Under the pieces are notes generated by a model that saw only the letters and a list, made by a program, of their open reading frames with translations, did no database searches and was not told the origin of the DNA. A program made the position numbers and the translations under genes. Source: Dictyostelium discoideum (taxonomy: Eukaryota). From it: a DNA stretch of 64,000 nt. Shown piece after piece: positions 2,353 to 61,952 of the stretch (position 1 is its first letter; each line of letters begins with the position of its first letter). The DNA lies in assembly GCA_000004695.1 (NCBI GenBank), contig CM000150.2, positions 1,632,001 to 1,696,000 of the forward strand. Reading direction: 5' to 3'.

Positions 2353-3778
2353 TTTTACCAGAAAACATTGAAAATGAAATTAAAGAAATTTTAGGTGAAG
2401 ATTATTTAATAGATTATGAATTTAAAGAAAAACAATTATTAAGGTTATTAATAATTGAAAGTCAATCAAAATCATTATATAGATTTTATTATGAAAGATA
2501 TAGTCAAACTATTGAACAAAACTTGATTACAAAATTTAAAGTACCAATTTATGAATCATCTAATGTTTTTGATGATTTACAAATATTGGCTAAACTTGGA
2601 TTTAATGAAAATCTCAATAGAATAATTCAATGTATAAATGATTTTATTAATGATCATAATGTTAGAATTTGTAAAAACTTTCATAAATATTTTGAAATAA
2701 TAAGATTTATTAGAAATTATATATTTAATAATTTTAATTGTAATGAAAATTATAGTAAATTAATTGAAGTAATGTCAATTAATGGTGTGGGATTAACAAT
2801 ACTTTATTTACCAAGTAAATGGAATTCTTATTTAAAATATTTTACTCTTGAACAATTTAAAAATGATAAAGTTTTAATTTCAGATAAACAAGTTATAAAA
2901 TGGTTAAAATCAATTGAAAAAAAAAAGAATAAAATGTTTTCATCAGTTTTATCAGAATATTATAAAAAAAGAAGAAATAATTTAATAGAGTTTAGTTGTA
3001 ATGAAATTGCTCAATATGCAATCAAAAAATTAGAGATTGGTAATTTTTCAAATAAATTCCCACCAATTAAATTTGATATTATCAAATGGTCAACCATTGA
3101 AAATCAAAATCCAATTTCAAATATTATTAATGAACTTTCTTTTCAAAATTACAACATTTTAATTGAATCTGATCAAGATAATAATAATATTGATATTGAT
3201 ATTGTTAAAAATAAAAAGAAAACAAATTTTATTATTCAATTAAATTATAACCTTTATAAATTAATTAATAATGATAATTATTCAGAAATTCGTAAATTTT
3301 TAATTCAAAATTTAATTAAAAGAATTTTAAAAATTAATGGTGGTAATGCTTTAAATCAAATATTTAAAACTACAAGTTTTAAAGATACTTTACAAAATTA
3401 TCCATTCACATTTTTTGAAACATTTATAAACTCTTTTAATAACTTTGAAATTGAAAATGTTATAATGTTTTTAAATAGTGGAATTGATTTCATAAAATAT
3501 CAATATGATTTTCAACTAGTTTGGAATAAAAAAGTCGATCAAGTTATAGACATTTACAAAAAAAAATATTCATTTGGTTTTAATTACACAAATATAATAA
3601 ATAATATTAAAAGTGAAGTGGTTTTAAATTTTATTAACTATTGGTTAACTCAAGATAAAATTCCATTCAATTCTGAAATTAATAAATTAATAGTAAATCA
3701 TTTATTTAAAAAGTTAATTCAAACTCAAGGTATTACAATTTATCAAGTTTCAAAAATTAGAAATTTAATATTAAATTT

Positions 3779-3816
<38 letters not shown>

Positions 3817-4454
3817 TACCAAATAATAATGATAAAATAATATTTTTAGAAGAAACAAATTTTCATACTTTTTTTTATCTTTATAATAAGACACCAAAGA
3901 TTTCACATTATATAGAGAGTACAGAGTATTCAATTTTTAATTTAAATTCAAATTCAGATGCAAGTTTATTTGATTTTCAATTTATTTATAAGGAATCATT
4001 TGAAAGATTAATTGAAATTTTAATGGAAAAGGATAATGGTAATGAGCCTACCAATAAAAAGGTAAATAATCAACTATTATACTTTTTAGTGATAAGAAGA
4101 ATTGATTTGTTTTTTAATCACCTTCAAACTATTAGAAAATTGGGATTGAATTTTAGATTTAGTAAATATTCAGAATTGATAAAAATTATTCAACATCAAC
4201 AATTTAGTGGAAATTCAAATGATTCTTTAAAAACTTTTATTAATGAATATAGATTAACAAATTCTAATATCACTGAACAATCAATTGCATCACAACTCTT
4301 AATTGAATCAGTAAAATTAAATAGTAAAGAAGAAATTATTAATTTCATTATTGAAAACTATCAACCAGAAAAAATAACTCTTCCATCTTCAACCATTGAT
4401 AATCCTTTAGTTCAAAAAATTTTAAAAAATTATCCAAATTTGTTGAAGTTTTAA
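1311..4454 (+). CDS. Hypothetical Asn-rich protein (1047 aa), paralogous N-terminus to the ankyrin-repeat gene at 36764-39736
   Basis: A single long ORF that opens with poly-N, then EILFWKVYRNVYLNKQIF. Poly-N (2300-2345) and poly-S (3781-3819) runs are present. A poly-T/A promoter-like region lies immediately upstream. Confidence 0.6.
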
Positions 4455-4629
4455 AAGTGATCAATTCTAAAAATAAATGTGGTAAAAATGGAAAAGTAAA
4501 ACTATGAAAAAATAAAAAATAAAAAATAAAAATAAAAATAAAAATAGAAATAAAAATAAAAAAATAAAGATATTGATAAAAAACATTCAAATGTGAATAA
4601 TAAAAAGGTATATTTAATTAAAACTGTGC

Positions 4630-4667
<38 letters not shown>

Positions 4668-4807
4668 GAATGGTTACTTTCATTTTTTTTATATCTTATA
4701 TCATTTTGTATTTTCGAATATATACTATATTAATATTAAAAATAAATAAAATTTAATAATTGTTAAAAAAAAAAGAAAAAGAAAATGAAAAAAAAAAAAA
4801 AAAATTT

Positions 4808-4844
<37 letters not shown>

Positions 4845-5374
4845 CAAAGTCAACACCAAAATTTGCCCTAAAAATAAAAAAAAAAAAAGGGCTTTTTTTT
4901 TGTTATGTTACCTTCTTGTAAAAAAAAAGAAAAAATAAGAAAAAAAAAAATAAAGAAAAAAAAAAAAATTGACACTTCATTTTTTTGGAATTAAAGTATT
5001 AAAAAAAAAAAAAAAAAAAAAAGATCAATGTGTGTTAAATATATGAAAAAAAAAAAAAAATTTCACCCATAATAACAATAATAATACTATCACACTTTCA
5101 CAAACACACACACACTTAAAACATTTATAAATTTTCATTTTTTTTTATTTTTTTATTTATTTTTATAGTATTCTCTTTTAAAAAAAAAACAATAACATAT
5201 TATTATTTGAATATTTTTCAAATTTAAAATTATTTATTTAAAACAACACAACAGAAACAATTCATATATATAATTATATTAGATACAAATAGATATAGAT
5301 ATAATAAATAAATAAATAAATATATATAAATATATATATTTATAAATATATATTTGTAAATATATAAATATAAA

Positions 5375-5504
5375 ATGAAATGTATATCAAATATAACATC
5401 AAGTAGCAGAAAACAAAAATTTTTAATTTTATTTATCCTTGTTGCAAGTTCTATATTGTTGATGTTTTATGATGAATTTAGTTTTATAACAGTATTTAAT
5501 AAAG

Positions 5505-5535
<31 letters not shown>

Positions 5536-7913
5536 CTATAGAACAAATCAATTTAAAGATAACGATAATATTTTTTACACTAATCGAATTTTAGAAGAAA
5601 CTAGGAATTCAGATGTTGTCATTTTTCTATGGGATCCATCATCAGAACGCGATGATTGGACAGGAATTTTAAAATCTAATAATTTAGTAACACAACAACA
5701 AATTGATGATTATAATAATAAAAAATCTTTATTTACTTCAACAACATCAACAACTTCTCATCCTTATACTAGTAGTAGAAGTAGTACTAGTACTAGTAGT
5801 AGAAGTAGTACTAGTACTAGTAGTAGAAGTAGTACTAGTGGAGGTAGAAGTAGTAGTGGAGGTAGTAGTACTAGTAGTGGAGGTAGTAGTACTAGTAGTG
5901 GAAGTAGTAGTACAACTAGTAGTAGAGGTAGTAGTACCACTAGTAGAAGTAGTAGTACTACTGGTATTAGAGGTGGTAGTAGTACAACTCAACAAACTGA
6001 AGTGGAAGCAGCAGCAGCAGTATCAGGTCAATTATCAATAGATTTTAATCAAAAATCACTATCAATAAAATTAAATGAAGTATTTAATGAAAAGAATAAA
6101 TGTTCATGTTCATGTAGATTTACAAATCTTCAAGAAGAGATTGTTGAGTCACATTTAATTTTATTTGATCCAGTTTATTTACATAAAGATAATTGGAAGA
6201 GATCACCATTAAAGTTACCAGAGAAACATTCACATCAAAAGTTTGGTTTATTTCATTATAACTCAAAGAGTCAATATTCAATACTCTCTAATAAACCATA
6301 TAATAACTTGATGGATATTGATATCTCTTACCTAAATAGTGATCATAATCTTGATATCACTTTAGCATGTCCACCCAATTCATCTTTTACCCTTGACGAC
6401 ACTTCAAAATTATTATTAAAAAAACACAAAGATTGGGATAAACGTAATAATTCTGCAATTTTCATTTCTTCAAATTGCGTAGATGGTTTATCATTATCAA
6501 GAACTGTATGTTTTTTTAAAAAAAAACAAATAATAACAATATAATAATATTAATTTATTTTTTTTTTTTTTTTATGTGATTTTTTAGAATTTAGTAAAAG
6601 AATTATCAAAAATTATTAAAATTGAATCATTAGGCAATTGTTTGAATGATAATACAGTTAATATTAAAAGTAAAGAAGAATTAGGATCAATTTATTCAAG
6701 AATTGAGTATAATATGGAAATTTATAAGAAAGCGAAATTTGTAATTTGTTTTGAGAATGAAAATTCAACAAACTATGTAACAGAGAAAGTTTATACTGCT
6801 TTATATGCTGGTGCAATACCAATTTGGATGGGTGCTAAAAATATTGATCAATATGTACCAACGGGTTCGATTATCAATGGAAATGAATTTAATAATATTA
6901 ATGAAATTGGTGAACATATAAAATCAATAATAGATGGTAAAATTGATTATAAAAGATATTTCAAATGGAAAGATGATAATGATAATCAATCATTAGAGAG
7001 TAAAGTTATTGATAAATTAAAACGTTGTATTAATACAGTTGATATGAAATGTAAAATTTGTGAGACCATTTATAAATCGATTGAGCAATCTGATAGGGAT
7101 TATCTATCATCAACTGTTGCTGCAAAGAATTATCATTATGTTTCAAACAATATTGGATATTATACACCCCAATTTGTGTCAATGAAAGGATTGGGTGACC
7201 ATATCTTTGTCAATAGGAATGAAGATACTTGTAAGAATTGTTTTAATCTTGATGATCATTATACCCTAATGGCATGGGTCAAGCCATCAACATTCTCTGA
7301 TCAGAGAATTATTGATAAGAATCATGCGGGAACAATTAGTGGATACAATTTCGATATTCAAAAGACATCAGGTGGTCGTGGTGTGGCTAGACTATGTGCG
7401 GGTACAGCATGTTTTGAATCCTTCAAGAGTATACCCAACGATTTATGGTCACATGTTGCTGTGGTGTTTAGTTGTAATAATTTAGATGTTCAAAAGAATC
7501 GTGTCACTTTTTATATAAATGGTGTGTTTAATGCAGAGTTTGATAATTTTAAACCAACTAAAATTAATGACTTCCCTTTGGTAATTGGTAAATCTGGTAA
7601 AAAAACTGAATCAACAAGTTATCATGGTATGATTGATGATATAATGATCTTTAATATCTCTCTAACCTCTGATGATATCAAATATGTACTCTCTTCAAAA
7701 CCAAATCTTTCCACCTTTAAATTTGCAAATGATCTTCAACTCTTTTATGATTTCGATTATAATCCAAATAATCCAAAATCACATGATCGTAATATAGTTC
7801 GTGATAAATCAATTTATAAAAATGATGGTACCTTTGCTAGTGGTTCAAGTGATGACTATTCTGAAAAAATAACTTCAATAAGTAAAGAAATATCTTTTAA
7901 TAAAAAATTATAA
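5375..7913 (+). CDS. GT10 alpha-1,3-fucosyltransferase-like type II membrane protein with Ser/Thr-rich stalk and C-terminal ConA/LamG-like domain; exons 5375..6505 and 6588..7913
   Basis: N-terminal TM anchor KFLILFILVASSILLMF. A 5760-5990 stalk repeat (SSRSSTSTS)n. The intron is GTATGT...TTTTAG (6506-6587) and keeps the frame in phase 0. The GT10 motif FVICFENENSTNYVTEKVYTALYAGAIPIWMGA is present. The C-terminal jelly-roll motifs are WSHVAVVF, YINGV and IDDIMIFNISLT. Confidence 0.7.
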
Positions 7914-8027: not shown

Positions 8028-8576
8028 TTATATTTGTAATTTTAATTTTTCAATTATTTTTAAAGATTCATCTATGTGAGAAGTTGAACTAAGTAAACCA
8101 TCATGTATACCTGCTATAATACCATGTTTATCAATGATGAATGTTTTTCTACCAGGTAATAATATACCGTTAACACCATATAATTTAGCTAATTTACTAT
8201 GTTTATCTGTCAATAATGTGAATGGTAATGAATATTTTGAAACGAATGATTTATGACTATCTTCACCATCACTACTAACCCCGATTACTTCTGCACCGGC
8301 TTCTATAAATTTTTGATATTTATCTCTAAATTCACAACTCTCTATAAAAGTATGTAAGAATGTTGTTATTTTATTAGTATCAATGAATGTTAATGAGGTA
8401 TTGTAATAAATAAATTAAATATTACCTTTTGTGCATACTGGACTATTATCTTTTGGATAAAAGTATAAAACGATTGGTTGACTCTTATCTTTAAATTCTT
8501 TGAGTGTAACTGTTTGACCTAAATAATTTTTAGCTTCAAAATCTGGTGCAACATTTCCAACTTTTAATTTTGTCAT
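8028..8576 (-). CDS. Peroxiredoxin, BCP/PrxQ type (about 154 aa); exons 8576..8426 and 8341..8028
   Basis: The spliced product reads MTKLKVGNVAPDFEAKNYLGQTVTLKEFKDKSQPIVLYFYPKDNSPVCTKESCEFRD...SLPFTLLTDKHSKLAKLYGV...TFIIDKHGII. These are the FYPKD...C and resolving-Cys motifs of BCP-type thiol peroxidases. The intron GTAAT...TTTTATAG spans 8425-8342. Confidence 0.7.
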
Positions 8577-56331: not shown

Positions 56332-56501
56332 TTGATTGGAAATGAATTAGTTATCATTGTACAGAAAAAAGAAATAAACGAGAATTTATACATATAATAA
56401 ATAAATCACTGTTATATCTTCACCGCCACATTCATTCCTCTTAATTTTACCCTTTTTTTGCTCAATAAAGCAAGGGCTATCGTCTTCTATACTTTTCAAC
56501 A

Positions 56502-57200
56502 ATGGCTGGTGATCACTCAACTGAATTACAGTTAAATCATACAGATAACATCACAACCAATACAAATAATACCTCCACAACCTCAACAACAAAAAACAAA
56601 AGTGCAAAAATCGACACACCTGAAAAACAAACCCCAACAAACCAACTCTCACTAAACAAAGGACTTGATAATCAATTAGATATCATTGCACCTCCATCAA
56701 TCACAAGACCACTCTCTTTCTTAGAAAAAAACAATAACACCATCAACATTAAGTGTTACTTTAATCAACCACACATCCTTGAAGAATTAACCTCTAAAGA
56801 TGACACAAGAATCCAACAAATTCACAAAAACATTCACAAACTCTTCGAAGATATACTGTCGCCATCAGCATTTAAAATAATTGGTGCAACTGCCTTCGTA
56901 AATTGCAACGTTGATAAATTAACTTCAATAATCAACCTTCAAAACCAACTTGCACTAAATATAGACAAACTCAATAATGAAATTTCACACAAAAGTGATT
57001 CTTCAAATAATAATAACGGGAAAAACTCATTATCAATGAGCAATCCAACCGATCCAACAATTGTACCACAAAAACCTCTACAATCCCAACCAAACAAACC
57101 AAGTGCACCAACTCCAAATACAATAAATACAAGAAGAAGCAGCAATGCCCTGACTACACAACCAGTCAATACTGGTGCTGCCAAACCTAGTAAGGTATGA
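56502..57200 (+). CDS. Retrotransposon ORF1 protein (232 aa) of the TRE3-like element
   Basis: An intact ORF whose stop overlaps the ORF2 ATG. It is T/N/P-rich and has no recognisable enzymatic motif. Confidence 0.55.
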   Translation: MAGDHSTELQLNHTDNITTNTNNTSTTSTTKNKSAKIDTPEKQTPTNQLSLNKGLDNQLDIIAPPSITRPLSFLEKNNNTINIKCYFNQPHILEELTSKDDTRIQQIHKNIHKLFEDILSPSAFKIIGATAFVNCNVDKLTSIINLQNQLALNIDKLNNEISHKSDSSNNNNGKNSLSMSNPTDPTIVPQKPLQSQPNKPSAPTPNTINTRRSSNALTTQPVNTGAAKPSKV

Positions 57201-58463
57201 GCTCAAAAATCAACTTTATAACATGGAATTGTAGAGGATTCACTGAAAACCCAAACAATCAACACAATTCCTACCAAAAAGCTGTTGACACACTACAACT
57301 ACTTATATCAAAACTTCCACCTCGTCCAACAATCTCAATACTCACTGAACTCAATTCATCACCATTACAACTTAAACATTATTTTCCCGATCACATCATC
57401 TCTGTCACCAAACGAGGAAATGGTGTAATCATCATTAACCATAACCCAAACACACTCAAACTCAAACACATATCAACAATTGATATTACCAATCAATCCC
57501 AAAACAATAAAGAAATTTCACACAAAAGTGATTCTTCAAATAATAATAACGGGAAAAACTCATTATCAATGAGCAATCCAACCATGGTAGAGCTATTTTA
57601 GCAGACGTTATATTTCCAAATCAATTACCAATTGGTATTCTTGGAATTTACGCACCAGCATCAAATAATACCATCAAAAAGAATTCATATGCAACTTCAC
57701 TACAAACACTTCTCCACAACCACTCAACAAACCCAATACCAAACCAATCCCAACATGTATCTATTATCGCAGGAGATTTCAACTCTATCCACAACGACAA
57801 TTCACTATAAGATGATATTATCCAATCCTACACATACCAACACCATTTAATTGATCAAGGTGAATTTAAAAACACTCCAACTCATACACATGGCAACAGA
57901 TTAGATAGAATATATACTCAATACAATAGAATAGACCCTGAAAATATATATACACAAGTCCACCAAATTCCATCTTCATTATCAGATCATAATCCAACCA
58001 TGAAGCAATCAATATTATCAATCATTTAATAACTAATCACAATAACACATCAATCAATCAATTTACAAACTGGTCAAAAGTAAAATCAAAAATTATTAAA
58101 ACTCTAAAAAACTATCAATATAACAAAGACAAACAAACTCAACGTTCAAAACAAATACTATTAGGAAAAGCAGCAAAATTCAAACATCTTGAAGAACAAT
58201 GCATCGCTGAATACAATATTATATGTAACAAAAACAAATTACATCAAAACCACACAAACATATTAAAAAAACATATAAATGGAGAAATACCTTGCAAGTA
58301 TCTATCAGCAATACTAAACAAAAGATCAAAACATGCAAAAATTGAATCAATCCAATATGGTAACATCATTACATCCGACCCCGACCAAATTGAAAATGCG
58401 TTTGTTGAATTCTACACAAATCTATATAGCTTACAAATATGTTGTCCAATTACTCACCAGCTC

Positions 58464-58910
58464 ATGCCAAACACATGGCCCATCATAAAAAATGAATATT
58501 TGAATGGTTTAGACTCACCATTTATACAAGATGAAGTTGAAGCTGCAATTAAAACCTGTAACCCCAACGAATCACCCGGTCCAGATGGCGTTACAAATGC
58601 TTTCTACTTTAATCATTTAAACCAAGTTAAACCAATTCTCACTACATTATTCTACGATATACTAGAAAATCCTCACCACATCACAACAGAATTCACCGAA
58701 GGTCTTATACACACAATATACAAGAAAGGCAACCCCTTACTCATATCAAATCGTCGTCCCATTACACTTCTAAACACTGATTACAAGATCCTCTCAAAAG
58801 TAATCAATGCACGTCTTCTGAGAATACTTCCTTTCATCATCAACAACAACCAAACTGGTTTCGTACCCCACAGATTCATCATAGACAACATCATCAACAT
58901 CAATGAATAA
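58464..58910 (+). CDS. Reverse-transcriptase fragment of the retrotransposon ORF2 (disrupted)
   Basis: Non-LTR RT motifs SPGPDG and RPITLLNTDYKILSKV. The frame is broken on both sides. Confidence 0.7.
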   Translation: MPNTWPIIKNEYLNGLDSPFIQDEVEAAIKTCNPNESPGPDGVTNAFYFNHLNQVKPILTTLFYDILENPHHITTEFTEGLIHTIYKKGNPLLISNRRPITLLNTDYKILSKVINARLLRILPFIINNNQTGFVPHRFIIDNIININE

Positions 58911-61169
58911 ATCAACTACCTCAAATCTAAAAACCTCCCTGGTATAATCACACTATTTGACTTCTTTAAAGCATTTGATTCTATCTCTCACCTTGTTTTA
59001 ATACTATCAAAAGAACATTAATTCATATTGGTATACCAATAAAATTAATAAATTTAATCCACAAGCTATTATTTGATTCACAAGCAAAAATTTCAATTAA
59101 TGGTAAAACCACCAGAAAATTCGATATTAAAAGAGGTGTAAAACAAGGTGACCCAATCTCAGCCACTTTATTTGTAATTGTAATTGAAATATTAGCAAGA
59201 ACAATAAATGCAGACAATACAATAATTGGATTACCAATTTCATCCAATCCACAAATTAAAATCAAATTTACCCAATTTGCAGACGAATCTACAACATACA
59301 ACATCAACTACGAACAACAACAATCAATCAAACATTTCGATAATTTATGTGCTAAAACATCATCATCATTAAATTTTGACAAAAGTGCAATAATAGAAAT
59401 CAACCCCCACAAAATCACTGATAAACACATAATAAACAACGTTCCACAATCAAAAAGAATACCAATAACCAAAAAAGATTAATCAGAAAGAGTCCTAGGC
59501 TATTTCTTTAATAATAATGGTTTACATAGGAAATTACCAGAAACAATGAAAACACTGAATAAATCATTAGTACTATGGAAAACTAGTGGCACACCAATAA
59601 CATATTTATCATACCTTGAAGAATTTACAAAAGATGAAGAAATTCAAATTAATAAATTAATCTCATGGTTTATGAATTCCGCAAATTCTGAATCACCAAC
59701 TCTCAATACCAATTCCATTGAAAACAACACATCAACCATCCATTCACGTGCAAAATTACCTTTGATGTGTTATGATAGATCATTAAAACCATTAAAAGAA
59801 GGTGGTTGGGGTATGTGGAATATACAATTACGAAAAGTTGCTCAAAAGAATTGGATATACAACAGATTTTTACAAATGCATATATCTGCAAACAATTCAA
59901 TATACATGATAAGTTGGATGGATCAAATCATCAACAAATCAATCTCTTCTCCATACCTTATAAAAATTAAAAAAGAATGGGAAAACTATGCAACTCAAAT
60001 TGGACATCTAAAAGATAAAGTTAAAATCCTACAACCAATATTAATAAAAAATCAAACCTCTCAAACATTAACCACAAATAATATTCCACTACCACCAACA
60101 CTCAAAGAAATCTACTCGACAATACTCAACAATCACCAATGTAAATCAAAAGACTATATTGGCAAGAAATATTCAGATCTACTTCTTACTTCGCACCAAC
60201 AATTAATACAACTATTATGGAAATACACATACGACCAACTATTTGTCAAAATTCAAAAATTAAAAGATCCAAAAGGCCGTGATACAATGCAAAGATTCCA
60301 TGCTAGATGTCTTCCGATTAATCACCTACACAACAAAGTTTGCCCCATTTGCAACAATGAAATGAATAATGATCCCTATGGTCATTTGTTTTTCAATTGT
60401 CAGCACACAATCAACTTCATAAACCACGACAAATTAAAATATTTTATATATAAAAATTGCAATGGAAACAAAAACTGGTCACTAACAAAAAACCAAACAA
60501 CAAAATTATACACTCATTTATAAACCACAAACAAACAACAAAGCATTTAAACCAGATCCAACTATCATGAATGGGGGGAGGAGACAGGGGACAGGGGACA
60601 GGGGACAGGGGGGGAGATTTGAAGTTTTTTTTTAAATTTTTTAGTCAGTTGCAAATACAAATACATTGGCATATAATAAATAAAACTATTGATTGGAGTG
60701 AAATAAATAATCCAATAAATAAAAGAGAAAAAAAAAAAAATTCCGAATGAATAAATAAAATAAATCAACTTCCATTAATATTAATATTAAAGAAAAAAAA
60801 AAATTAAATATATAATTCCAACAAACAATTATTTTTAAAAATTAAAGAGTGGAAGCTAAATTTGGAATGTTAAAAGATTTTTGTGTCAGATTTTTTATTA
60901 AAAAAAAAAATTAATTTAATAATAAATTGTATATTAAAAAAAACATGACCACCAATGATTATGAAAACGTTTTAAAAAAAACACGTATTTAAAAATGAAA
61001 AATTATCTTGAAAAAATGAGTTTTTTAACAAAATTATGTGACTTTTTTTAAGTTTTGGCATAGGGTTTCCTTTTTAGATTAACAAAAAATATTGCAAAGT
61101 TGGTTATATTCAATAACAATATTAAAAATGGTTAATTTATCTTAAAAAATCGATAAAAAATTAATAATG

Positions 61170-61319: not shown

Positions 61320-61952
61320 ATGGGTATTGAAAATCAATTTCAACAACAAATTCCACAACCATTGTTAGTTCCAGTAAATGAAATAAACCAAGAAAAATAT
61401 ATTGTCAACCAATATTCAAAAACTCAACTTAAAGGTTCATTTTTAAAGGGATTTTCTGAAACATTTCCATATGAATTGACAAATGTAATGGCTCCACAAG
61501 ACTATCAAAGTATTATTAAAGAAATAAATGGAATATCAAAAACTAAAAAAATTCCAATCAAAGGATTTTTCGGTTTATTAGTAGTTTCAATCACTCTTTT
61601 ATTCTTTAGTCCTTTGGCTTTCGTCGTTATTTTCCCAATTGCAATTTCTTTAATTACAGTTTCATTAGTTTGTGTGCAATATTTCTCAAAGAGAATTCAA
61701 GAGAAAATTGAAAAAACCTTAATTAATTTTAATAATGTCTTTGCAATTCGTAGAGTTAACATTGAACTTTCAAAGAAATGTATGTTTTTGAAAACCAAAG
61801 TTAAAATTGTCTATCCAGCATCTCTTGCAATTCAACCAGTTATGTACAATATTCAACCAATTCAACAAGCTTTTTATCAACAACCAACAACAGTTGGAAA
61901 AGTTGAAACAACCAAAAATGAAGATACAGCTTCTTTATTATCAAAAGTTTAA
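61320..61952 (+). CDS. Small hypothetical membrane protein (210 aa) with one long hydrophobic hairpin
   Basis: An intact ATG ORF. The hydrophobic region GFFGLLVVSITLLFFSPLAFVVIFPIAISLITVSLVCV is present. The termini are Q/P-rich. Confidence 0.4.
   Translation: MGIENQFQQQIPQPLLVPVNEINQEKYIVNQYSKTQLKGSFLKGFSETFPYELTNVMAPQDYQSIIKEINGISKTKKIPIKGFFGLLVVSITLLFFSPLAFVVIFPIAISLITVSLVCVQYFSKRIQEKIEKTLINFNNVFAIRRVNIELSKKCMFLKTKVKIVYPASLAIQPVMYNIQPIQQAFYQQPTTVGKVETTKNEDTASLLSKV

Follow-up and report, generated by a model that had tools for sequence, protein, structure and literature searches.

In the D. discoideum AX4 genome, a decayed and immobile TRE3-type retrotransposon copy has very probably been reshaped by the templated insertion of a piece of its own ORF1 into the endonuclease domain of ORF2 and by a separate 510-bp deletion within ORF1. 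The copy has no function. It lies on chromosome 1, upstream of DDB_G0268208, within a 64-kb window, the whole stretch of DNA that was analysed, in which no further TRE fragments were found. Alignment to other copies fixes, at the level of sequence, the identity of the element, all of its breakpoints, and the private status of its lesions (Table 1).

Table 1. Features of the TRE3-type copy, its target and its flanks, in window coordinates.
Feature	Position	Strand	Evidence or remark
tRNA-Thr(AGU) gene, insertion target	56222-56293	+	ARAGORN; Rfam tRNA 65.5 bits
External B-box-like motif GGTTCGAATC	56322-56331	+	Read directly; 28 nt past tRNA-Thr
TRE3-type non-LTR retrotransposon copy, (nearly) 5'-complete, 3'-truncated	56365-60567	+	BLASTN to L001 2864-7599 and three more copies
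ORF1, cut to 232 aa (402 aa when intact)	56502-57200	+	In-frame loss of 510 bp (L001 3474-3983)
Junction of 510-bp ORF1 deletion, CAA microhomology	56972-56974	+	Overlapping HSPs, junction read-out
Repeat copy 1, native ORF1 site; upstream 20 nt gone via 510-bp deletion	56972-57050	+	
ORF2 start, APE endonuclease N-terminus; premature end after insert	57197-57601	+	-1 frame
Endonuclease (Exo_endo_phos), split by insert and TAA at 57808-57810	57218-57990	+	Pfam 41.6 bits, cut-off 24.5
Inserted ORF1 copy (L001 3961-4059, 99 nt) plus duplicated AT	57485-57585	+	Alignment
Junction of 79-bp frameshifting deletion, just past SDHNP, 1-nt microhomology	57996-57998	+	
Reverse transcriptase (RVT_1), with TAA at 58908-58910	58722-59398	+	Pfam 88.1 bits, passes cut-off
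8-nt insertion (frameshifting) and 9-nt micro-inversion, reverse transcriptase domain	58992-59008	+	
Nonsense codon, CAA to TAA	59480-59482	+	
Junction of 45-bp in-frame deletion, CA/CAC microhomology	59591-59592	+	
Cys/His zinc-finger motif CPICNNEMNNDPYGHLFFNCQH near ORF2 C-terminus	60341-60406	+	Pfam zinc-finger matches weak
47-nt G-rich filler (27 G in first 45 nt), (AGGGGAC)x4.7	60568-60614	+	Between truncated TRE3 and host DNA
Host flanking DNA outside the element, starting AGATTTGAAG	60615-60741	+	Homologous at TRE3-free orthologous sites L005, L006 and L007

By sequence, the element belongs to the TRE3-type non-LTR retrotransposons of Dictyostelium discoideum. Its alignment with other copies begins at position 56365, or possibly at 56359, and substitution identity to four other copies ranges from 97.3 to 98.8%, intact copies being 5.3 kb in length. 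The conceptual ORF2 product is 92% identical to the D. discoideum AX4 protein P0001 over 100% of the length; the cluster of P0001, the largest TRE3-like cluster in the protein search, includes the published 1275-aa 'pol' protein AAD43057, and the next D. discoideum reverse transcriptase families in that search reached only 29-37% identity. In the intact copy L001a, ORF1 (402 aa) and ORF2 (1275 aa) overlap by ATGA, and the AX4 copy is arranged like L001, with the ORF1 stop and the ORF2 start overlapping in ATGA at 57197-57200 (frames 0 and 2). The domain scores given in Table 1 come from a conceptual, frame-corrected ORF2.

[quoted passage not shown] In the window, sequence homologous to the element sets in 72 nt past the end of the tRNA-Thr gene (56293), on the same + strand and with the B-box-like motif in between; the orthologous sites L005, L006 and L007 have kept both the tRNA-Thr gene and this motif. 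The preliminary description was thus right to see here a TRE3-family element whose position and orientation behind a tRNA gene are canonical. Its span of 56400-60740 has to be redrawn, as homology runs from 56365 (or 56359) to 60567 and 173 nt of the span fall outside TRE3 homology.

When compared with published features of the TRE3 family (PMC5911963, PMC5006619), the AX4 copy resembles TRE3-A (formerly Tdd-3) in its position and orientation downstream of a tRNA gene, in having two ORFs, the second read in the -1 frame with respect to the first, in the APE, reverse transcriptase and zinc-finger order of ORF2, and in its 97-99% nucleotide identity to intact copies. It differs from TRE3-A in lacking the oligo(A) tail, the last ~566 bp, a target-site duplication and 170 ORF1 codons, and in carrying a 101-nt ORF1 fragment in its endonuclease domain along with many other lesions; the missing oligo(A) tail reflects a secondary loss and not a family difference. 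The subfamily is most likely TRE3-A, to judge by the number of copies, their size, the arrangement of the frames and the GenBank record; the P0001 cluster and its distance from the next families point the same way indirectly. A mosaic origin of the element was also considered and found unconvincing, as the identity of the 3' half is barely lower (97.4% vs 98.8%).

The preliminary description had drawn attention to a 72-nt segment, and an exact string search recovered it twice on the + strand, at 56979-57050 and 57512-57583, with 0 matches in dinucleotide shuffles. With one mismatch the repeat extends to 79 nt (56972-57050 and 57505-57583). Intact copies contain the segment once, in ORF1, which bears out the earlier view that the second occurrence is a piece of ORF1 lodged within the endonuclease domain. 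The size of that piece had been underestimated: 99 nt were transposed and now lie within the endonuclease domain, flanked by TTGAT and GGTAGAGC, a net gain of 101 nt that breaks the reading frame of ORF2. Only 72-79 nt look duplicated because the 510-bp deletion, which the preliminary description had missed, took the first 20 nt of the ORF1 source. Junction read-outs revealed a TTGAT microhomology on the 5' side of the insert; on the 3' side there is no usable microhomology and one G is missing. The premature stop reported earlier is likewise present, as the ORF from 57197 ends with ...NPTMVELF* at 57601 and the motif IIAGDFNS follows in another frame at 57763-57786.

The insert is missing from all four aligned copies, and when retrieved gene models were compared by eye at the endonuclease site, 11 others read HISTIDGRAILADV and IDKLNYRFDISS without it. 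That such a repeat belongs to the family as a normal module, or arose as an assembly artefact, we therefore regard as extremely improbable, and nothing but the repeat itself speaks for it: the segment is single in intact and other copies alike, and in an independent assembly, GCA_054883475.1 (L002), the structure recurs at 99.7% identity and agrees with the AX4 assembly across all junctions, so it does not stem from assembly. The T in GAAATTTCA that is common to both repeat copies was tried as a variant tying the insert to its own copy, and was set aside since it also occurs in L003b and is therefore not diagnostic.

The element was inserted ~70 nt behind tRNA-Thr(AGU), in tRNA orientation. 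We propose that a polymerase copying it would have departed from the endonuclease region at TTGAT|GG. The same polymerase would then have copied 99 nt of ORF1 lying ~430-530 nt upstream, starting just past an identical TTGAT, before going back to its point of departure and re-copying AT, giving rise to a frame-breaking direct duplication of 101 nt. A separate 510-bp microhomology deletion then stripped most of ORF1, although it may instead date from that very round of synthesis. A template-switch origin, as suggested in the preliminary description, fits the junctions and the TTGAT microhomology. The order of the segments (reference 3984-4493, 3961-4059, then 4494 onward) is also compatible with a 533-bp tandem duplication (reference 3961-4493) followed by deletions of 434 bp in the downstream unit and 510 bp into the upstream unit, in which case the 4493|3961 junction with its TTGAT would be the duplication joint. 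We consider this route very improbable, as it takes three events versus two template switches and one deletion, and as its second deletion must stop no more than 2 nt from the original boundary and restore ATGGTAGAGC, an unlikely coincidence.

The insert is one of about a dozen private defects in the AX4 copy, and neither it nor the deletions and truncation occur in any of the four aligned copies. The defects include three nonsense codons in ORF2 (TAA at 57808-57810, 58908-58910 and 59480-59482) and small slippage deletions of 2-3 nt, a 2-bp deletion among them. The suggestion that the insertion killed the copy can thus not be upheld, because the copy also has a 79-bp deletion, an 8-nt insertion, the 2-bp deletion, the three nonsense codons and a missing 3' end, any of which may have come first. 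Five of the private rearrangements in the AX4 copy measure at least 8 nt, versus none in L003b, where nothing private exceeds 2 nt, while private substitutions in the two copies are similar in number (40 vs 51). This clustering hints at a burst, an argument that is statistically weak because only five copies were compared at the DNA level.

For the internal rearrangements we lean, at about an even chance, towards a round of reverse transcription that was prone to jumps when the copy was made. We find it possible, at somewhat below an even chance, that a repair or replication error was responsible after integration, in which a break or stalled fork led to TTGAT-primed copying of the 99 nt of upstream ORF1 and to rejoining, as in a templated insertion, serial replication slippage or MMBIR, with the other deletions and the 3' truncation as independent later events. 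Every junction has 0-5 nt of microhomology, in keeping with such errors, and the micro-inversion at 58992-59008 is a typical product of replication template switching; as it needs the complementary strand as template, it would arise more easily in DNA replication than in reverse transcription. Long residence is indicated by the slippage deletions of 2-3 nt and by the three nonsense codons, a private 119-bp deletion in L001b indicates that deletions of this kind happen after insertion, and the 5' junction at the canonical TRE3 distance (PMC5911963) suggests normal integration with later loss of the 3' end and flank. Against this, five or six independent sizeable events would be needed in a single 4.2-kb copy, when L003b, of similar substitution age, has none above 2 nt, and it would be a coincidence that two unrelated breakpoints, where the ORF1 deletion ends on the right (reference 3983/3984) and where the duplicated source begins on the left (reference 3961), lie 22 nt apart. 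The single difference between the 79-nt copies is compatible with any timing of the rearrangements. Reverse-transcription and repair models alike must accommodate the 3' junction of the insert, which lacks microhomology and has lost one G.

Rearranged and chimeric L1 insertions arise by template switching of the reverse transcriptase and include internal deletions, U6/L1 chimeras and large target-site deletions. The AX4 copy resembles them in its junctions with no or short microhomology, in the several jumps that a single insertion would have undergone, and in the possible loss of target DNA instead of its duplication. The best-known L1 rearrangement is twin priming, which produces an inversion, whereas both repeat copies in the AX4 element lie on the + strand and the segment is direct. 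Templated insertions and other short template-switch mutations are known from polymerase-theta end joining, serial replication slippage and FoSTeS/MMBIR. Features shared with these are nearby direct copying primed on a 5-nt microhomology, a return within 2 nt of the point of departure, and a small inverted patch elsewhere in the copy, but theta-mediated insertions are typically shorter than this insert of 99 nt and have a source closer than 430-530 nt. TRE3 elements are abundant in D. discoideum and, like their decay products, already well described in its genome, and the value of the present case is a modest one, as a cleanly resolved example of template switching at 0-5 nt of microhomology that reshaped one non-LTR copy and in which the extent of the duplication was masked by a later deletion.

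On the 3' side, the match to all copies breaks off at 60567, ~566 bp short of the A14 tail of L001a. At the empty sites of related strains, a comparison of lineages that are ~86-93% identical in the region, host DNA picks up again at AGATTTGAAG, and ~115 bp present at the empty sites L006 and L007 are absent from the AX4 locus. Logan contigs of the flanking gene end ~90 bp upstream of the gene, short of the junction. The A-run at 60722-60741 was considered as a poly(A) tail and rejected, since orthologous sites free of TRE3 have conserved both the run and the sequence around it. No target-site duplication was found at the ends of the element. The sole resemblance to one is a weak coincidence of ATGAAT at 56343-56348 and 60567-60572.

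Between the truncated element and host DNA lies the G-rich filler. The preliminary description had rightly seen a tandem repeat here, and had taken it for a G-rich microsatellite at the 3' end of the element; the unit is 7 nt long (AGGGGAC, 4.7 times at 60579-60611) and not the 9-mer GGGGACAGG, and the tract is filler at the junction of a 3'-truncated element and its host. It is located where the poly(A) tail of the element should meet the conserved host A-run. A 7-mer that could have templated the repeat was absent from TRE3, its missing 3' part, the flanks and the empty sites, and no tract similar to the filler was found elsewhere in the window. We lean towards loss of the 3' end by a later deletion with filler DNA that also took the ~115 bp of flank.

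In other organisms, interstitial telomere-like repeats are laid down at sites of break repair. At its two ends the filler reads GGGGGGAGGAGA and AGGGGGGGAGA, and its G-rich strand is directed away from the broken TRE3 end, as at a healed end. D. discoideum telomeric repeats are of the form A(G)1-8 (PMC6759168); the filler departs from this form in its regular ACAGGGG 7-mer core with four C residues, in its length of 47 nt only, and in its interstitial position. It is unlikely that telomeric A(G)n-like repeats were put on a broken or nicked end in or behind TRE3 before rejoining, by telomerase or by an aberrantly primed reverse transcriptase; if they were, the filler would preserve, as a fossil, the trace of a healed chromosome or of a second, abortive retrotransposition at a Pol III target site. 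Upstream of tRNA-Thr we also observed a small retro-copied tRNA trailer, which, like the G-rich filler, will matter only if similar structures recur genome-wide.

The element 3' of tRNA-Thr(AGU) is a decayed TRE3 copy of an ordinary kind: its family is well known, its host is a thoroughly annotated model genome, and the copy carries a cleanly mapped private template-switch insertion. In a protein search, its frame-corrected ORF2 translation matched the D. discoideum AX4 protein P0001 at 92% identity over the full length, versus just 29-37% for the other D. discoideum retroelement families that the search recovered; P0001 clusters with a dozen models from AX4 and other strains and with the published 1275-aa 'pol' AAD43057. 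The corrected ORF2 exceeded the Pfam thresholds for APE endonuclease (41.6 bits) and reverse transcriptase (88.1 bits), and it starts in the -1 frame through an ATGA overlap with the ORF1 stop. An intact full-length relative of ~5.3 kb at the reference locus L001 encodes an ORF1 of 402 aa and an ORF2 of 1275 aa, ends in A14, and lies about 70-85 nt 3' of a tRNA-Lys gene. These features agree with the published definition of TRE3, namely two ORFs, an APE-RT-ZF order in ORF2 and an oligo(A) tail, with a -1 frame for TRE3-A (PMC5911963, PMC5006619). From abundance, size and frame arrangement, we infer that the subfamily is TRE3-A. The window copy lacks the oligo(A) tail and target-site duplication of TRE3, which is secondary damage alone. 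At L001, two TRE3 copies stand head-to-tail downstream of one tRNA-Lys gene, and (TTTTA)GTATTACCAAAA recurs within 2780-2860 and 8150-8245, preceding the external B box and appearing twice in the space that separates the copies, which suggests repeated integrations into the same target.

To map the window copy, it was compared by BLASTN and MAFFT with four others, namely L001a and L001b from the reference locus, and L003a and L003b. TRE3 homology spans 56365-60567 rather than the 56400-60740 proposed in the preliminary description.

Features of the TRE3 copy and its surroundings, with reference coordinates at L001
Feature	Window	L001
tRNA-Thr(AGU)	56222-56293	
B-box-like GGTTCGAATC 3' of tRNA-Thr(AGU)	56322-56331	
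5' UTR and start of ORF1	56365-56974	2864-3473
510-bp (170 codons) in-frame deletion, CAA microhomology	junction 56972-56974	3474-3983 missing
Remainder of ORF1 and start of ORF2	56975-57484	3984-4493
99 nt of ORF1, second copy, then AT	57485-57583	3961-4059
Endonuclease domain continuation	57586-57997	4494-4905
TAA nonsense codons	57808, 58908, 59480	
79-bp deletion, frameshift, 1-nt microhomology	junction at 57997	
Remainder of ORF2	57997-60567	4984-7599
Micro-inversion inside RT domain, 17 nt (CTTGTTTT + AATACTATC) instead of 9-nt GATAGTATT	58992-59008	
45-bp in-frame deletion	after 59591	
Cys/His zinc-finger motif of ORF2	60341-60406	
47-nt G-rich tract TGAATGGGGGGAGGAGACAGGGGACAGGGGACAGGGGACAGGGGGGG at TRE3/host junction	60568-60614	
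Tandem repeat AGGGGAC x4.7, 7-nt unit	60579-60611	
Flanking gene DDB_G0268208 of AX4	61320-61952	

The + strand holds exactly two occurrences of the 72-nt string (56979-57050 and 57512-57583), with zero matches in shuffled sequence, and, as first described, the ORF starting at 57197 terminates prematurely after ...NPTMVELF at 57601 while GRAILADV...IIAGDFNS runs on in another frame. If one mismatch is allowed, the repeat reaches 79 nt. The inserted piece itself is larger than the 72 nt first assigned to it, comprising 99 nt of ORF1 plus AT. The element thereby gains a net 101 nt (3n+2), and the frame shifts. With slashes marking junctions, the intact element reads ACAATTGAT/GGTAGAGC in the endonuclease region and CACTTGAT/ATTACC...CCAACC/GATCC in ORF1, and the window reads ACAATTGAT/ATTACC...CCAACC/AT/GGTAGAGC. 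At the 5' junction of the insert there is a microhomology of 5 nt (TTGAT). The 3' junction shows no microhomology; the G is missing there, and AT is duplicated. Just 72-79 nt appear duplicated, since the 510-bp ORF1 deletion covers the initial 20 nt of the source (ATTACCAATCAATCCCAAAA, reference 3961-3980), and the template was therefore either an ORF1 still without that deletion or a different template.

The micro-inversion, in which AATACTATC is the reverse complement of GATAGTATT and the other copies read GATAG(T/C)ATT, is a short template-switch type mutation. None of the four other copies has it, the 45-bp deletion, the slippage deletions (3, 3 and 2 nt) or the nonsense codons. The endonuclease site is HISTIDGRAILADV in 11 further gene models covering it, ORF1 is IDKLNYRFDISS in those that span it, and the insert is present in a single model, P0007, which represents the same locus in the independent assembly GCA_054883475.1. 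The 72-bp segment is thus not a family module, the reading that the preliminary description had set against its own, and this origin was rejected for the insertion. An assembly artefact is ruled out because the locus in that assembly is 99.7% identical and has all of the described junctions.

The duplicated segment is in direct orientation, was copied from a template and has microhomology at one side, and the polymerase came back to a point no more than 2 nt from where it had left. This is the signature of a polymerase that switched template twice while copying. The core of the original idea, that template switching placed a copied piece of ORF1 in the endonuclease domain, was right; the claim that the insertion killed the copy is not supported. 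Twin-priming inversion was rejected, the inserted segment being direct. Which polymerase made the switches we infer. Non-LTR reverse transcriptases can make homology-free jumps, and the internal rearrangements would all have arisen as the copy was born, during one jump-prone pass of reverse transcription, a reading to which we lean at about even odds. Counted in its favour are five private rearrangements of at least 8 nt in the window copy versus none >2 nt in L003b, where the number of private substitutions is comparable (40 versus 51), and the distance of 22 nt that separates the breakpoint of the ORF1 deletion from the boundary of the source. Later DNA-level events, in post-integration repair or replication, have a somewhat doubtful but substantial claim: the micro-inversion could be templated only by a complementary strand, a deletion of 119 bp is private to L001b, and nonsense and slippage mutations indicate long residence. 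The 5' junction also lies at the canonical TRE3 distance, suggesting normal integration followed by deletion of the 3' end and adjoining flank, and for the 3' truncation we favour such a later deletion with filler. The lone difference between the 79-nt copies is compatible with either timing, and the variant common to both is not private to the window copy.

Homology to every TRE3 copy ends at 60567, leaving ~566 bp of ORF2 and 3' UTR absent, together with the A-tail. Three orthologous loci free of TRE3 (L005, L006 and L007), each of a divergent lineage, conserve tRNA-Thr and the external B box, and their downstream homology to the window runs from AGATTTGAAG (60615) on, A-run included; the A-run earlier taken for the element's tail thus lies within a stretch common to the empty sites. 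These have an A9-A19 run before AGATTTGAAG, and ~115 bp between B box and this run in L006 and L007 has no window counterpart. The G-rich tract at the junction contains the G-richest 45-nt stretch of the 64 kb; the tandem repeat first noted there exists, with a 7-nt unit in place of the one proposed. No template for the tract was found in TRE3, flanks or empty sites. Its ends resemble the published D. discoideum telomeric repeat A(G)1-8 (PMC6759168), but its core ACAGGGG 7-mer has a C and does not fit, and we regard the tract as unexplained filler. L006 and L007, from assemblies labelled D. discoideum, are only ~86-93% identical to the window region (best aligned block 92.7%) and have no TRE3 copy. 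They therefore represent lineages clearly apart from that of AX4, although they carry the same species label. L005 (D. cf. discoideum) has a U6 snRNA sequence (7024-7129; Rfam, 57 bits) within the TRE3 target window, ~90 nt 3' of the orthologous tRNA-Thr and with ATTATTATT at either side. Neither L006 nor L007 nor the window has this sequence, which may therefore be a retro-inserted U6 copy.

The window consists of AT-rich Dictyostelium DNA. Upstream of tRNA-Thr, within 56110-56179, a 28-nt insert TTTTTTTCAAAAAAAAGGCTCCTATGAC (56131-56158) matches exactly, as reverse complement, the 3' end of tRNA-Thr together with its T8-GAAAAAAA trailer. The insert and four adjoining bases account for a 31-nt perfect inverted match (56127-56157 with 56282-56312), and a perfect 21-nt direct repeat AATTTAATCAAAAAATCAAAA, 43-63 nt upstream of tRNA-Thr and head-to-head with it, lies on both sides of the insert. 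The arrangement resembles what target-primed retro-copying would leave behind if the template had been a read-through Pol III transcript from this very tRNA gene, and it lies close to the TRE5 integration window. Further upstream, the segments 54061-54123 and 54235-54317 comprise a tRNA gene that contains an intron and has a GTA anticodon (Rfam, 57.8 bits), probably tRNA-Tyr and misread by ARAGORN as having a 4-base anticodon, and, ~174 nt upstream of it, a 5' partial duplicate without the T-arm.
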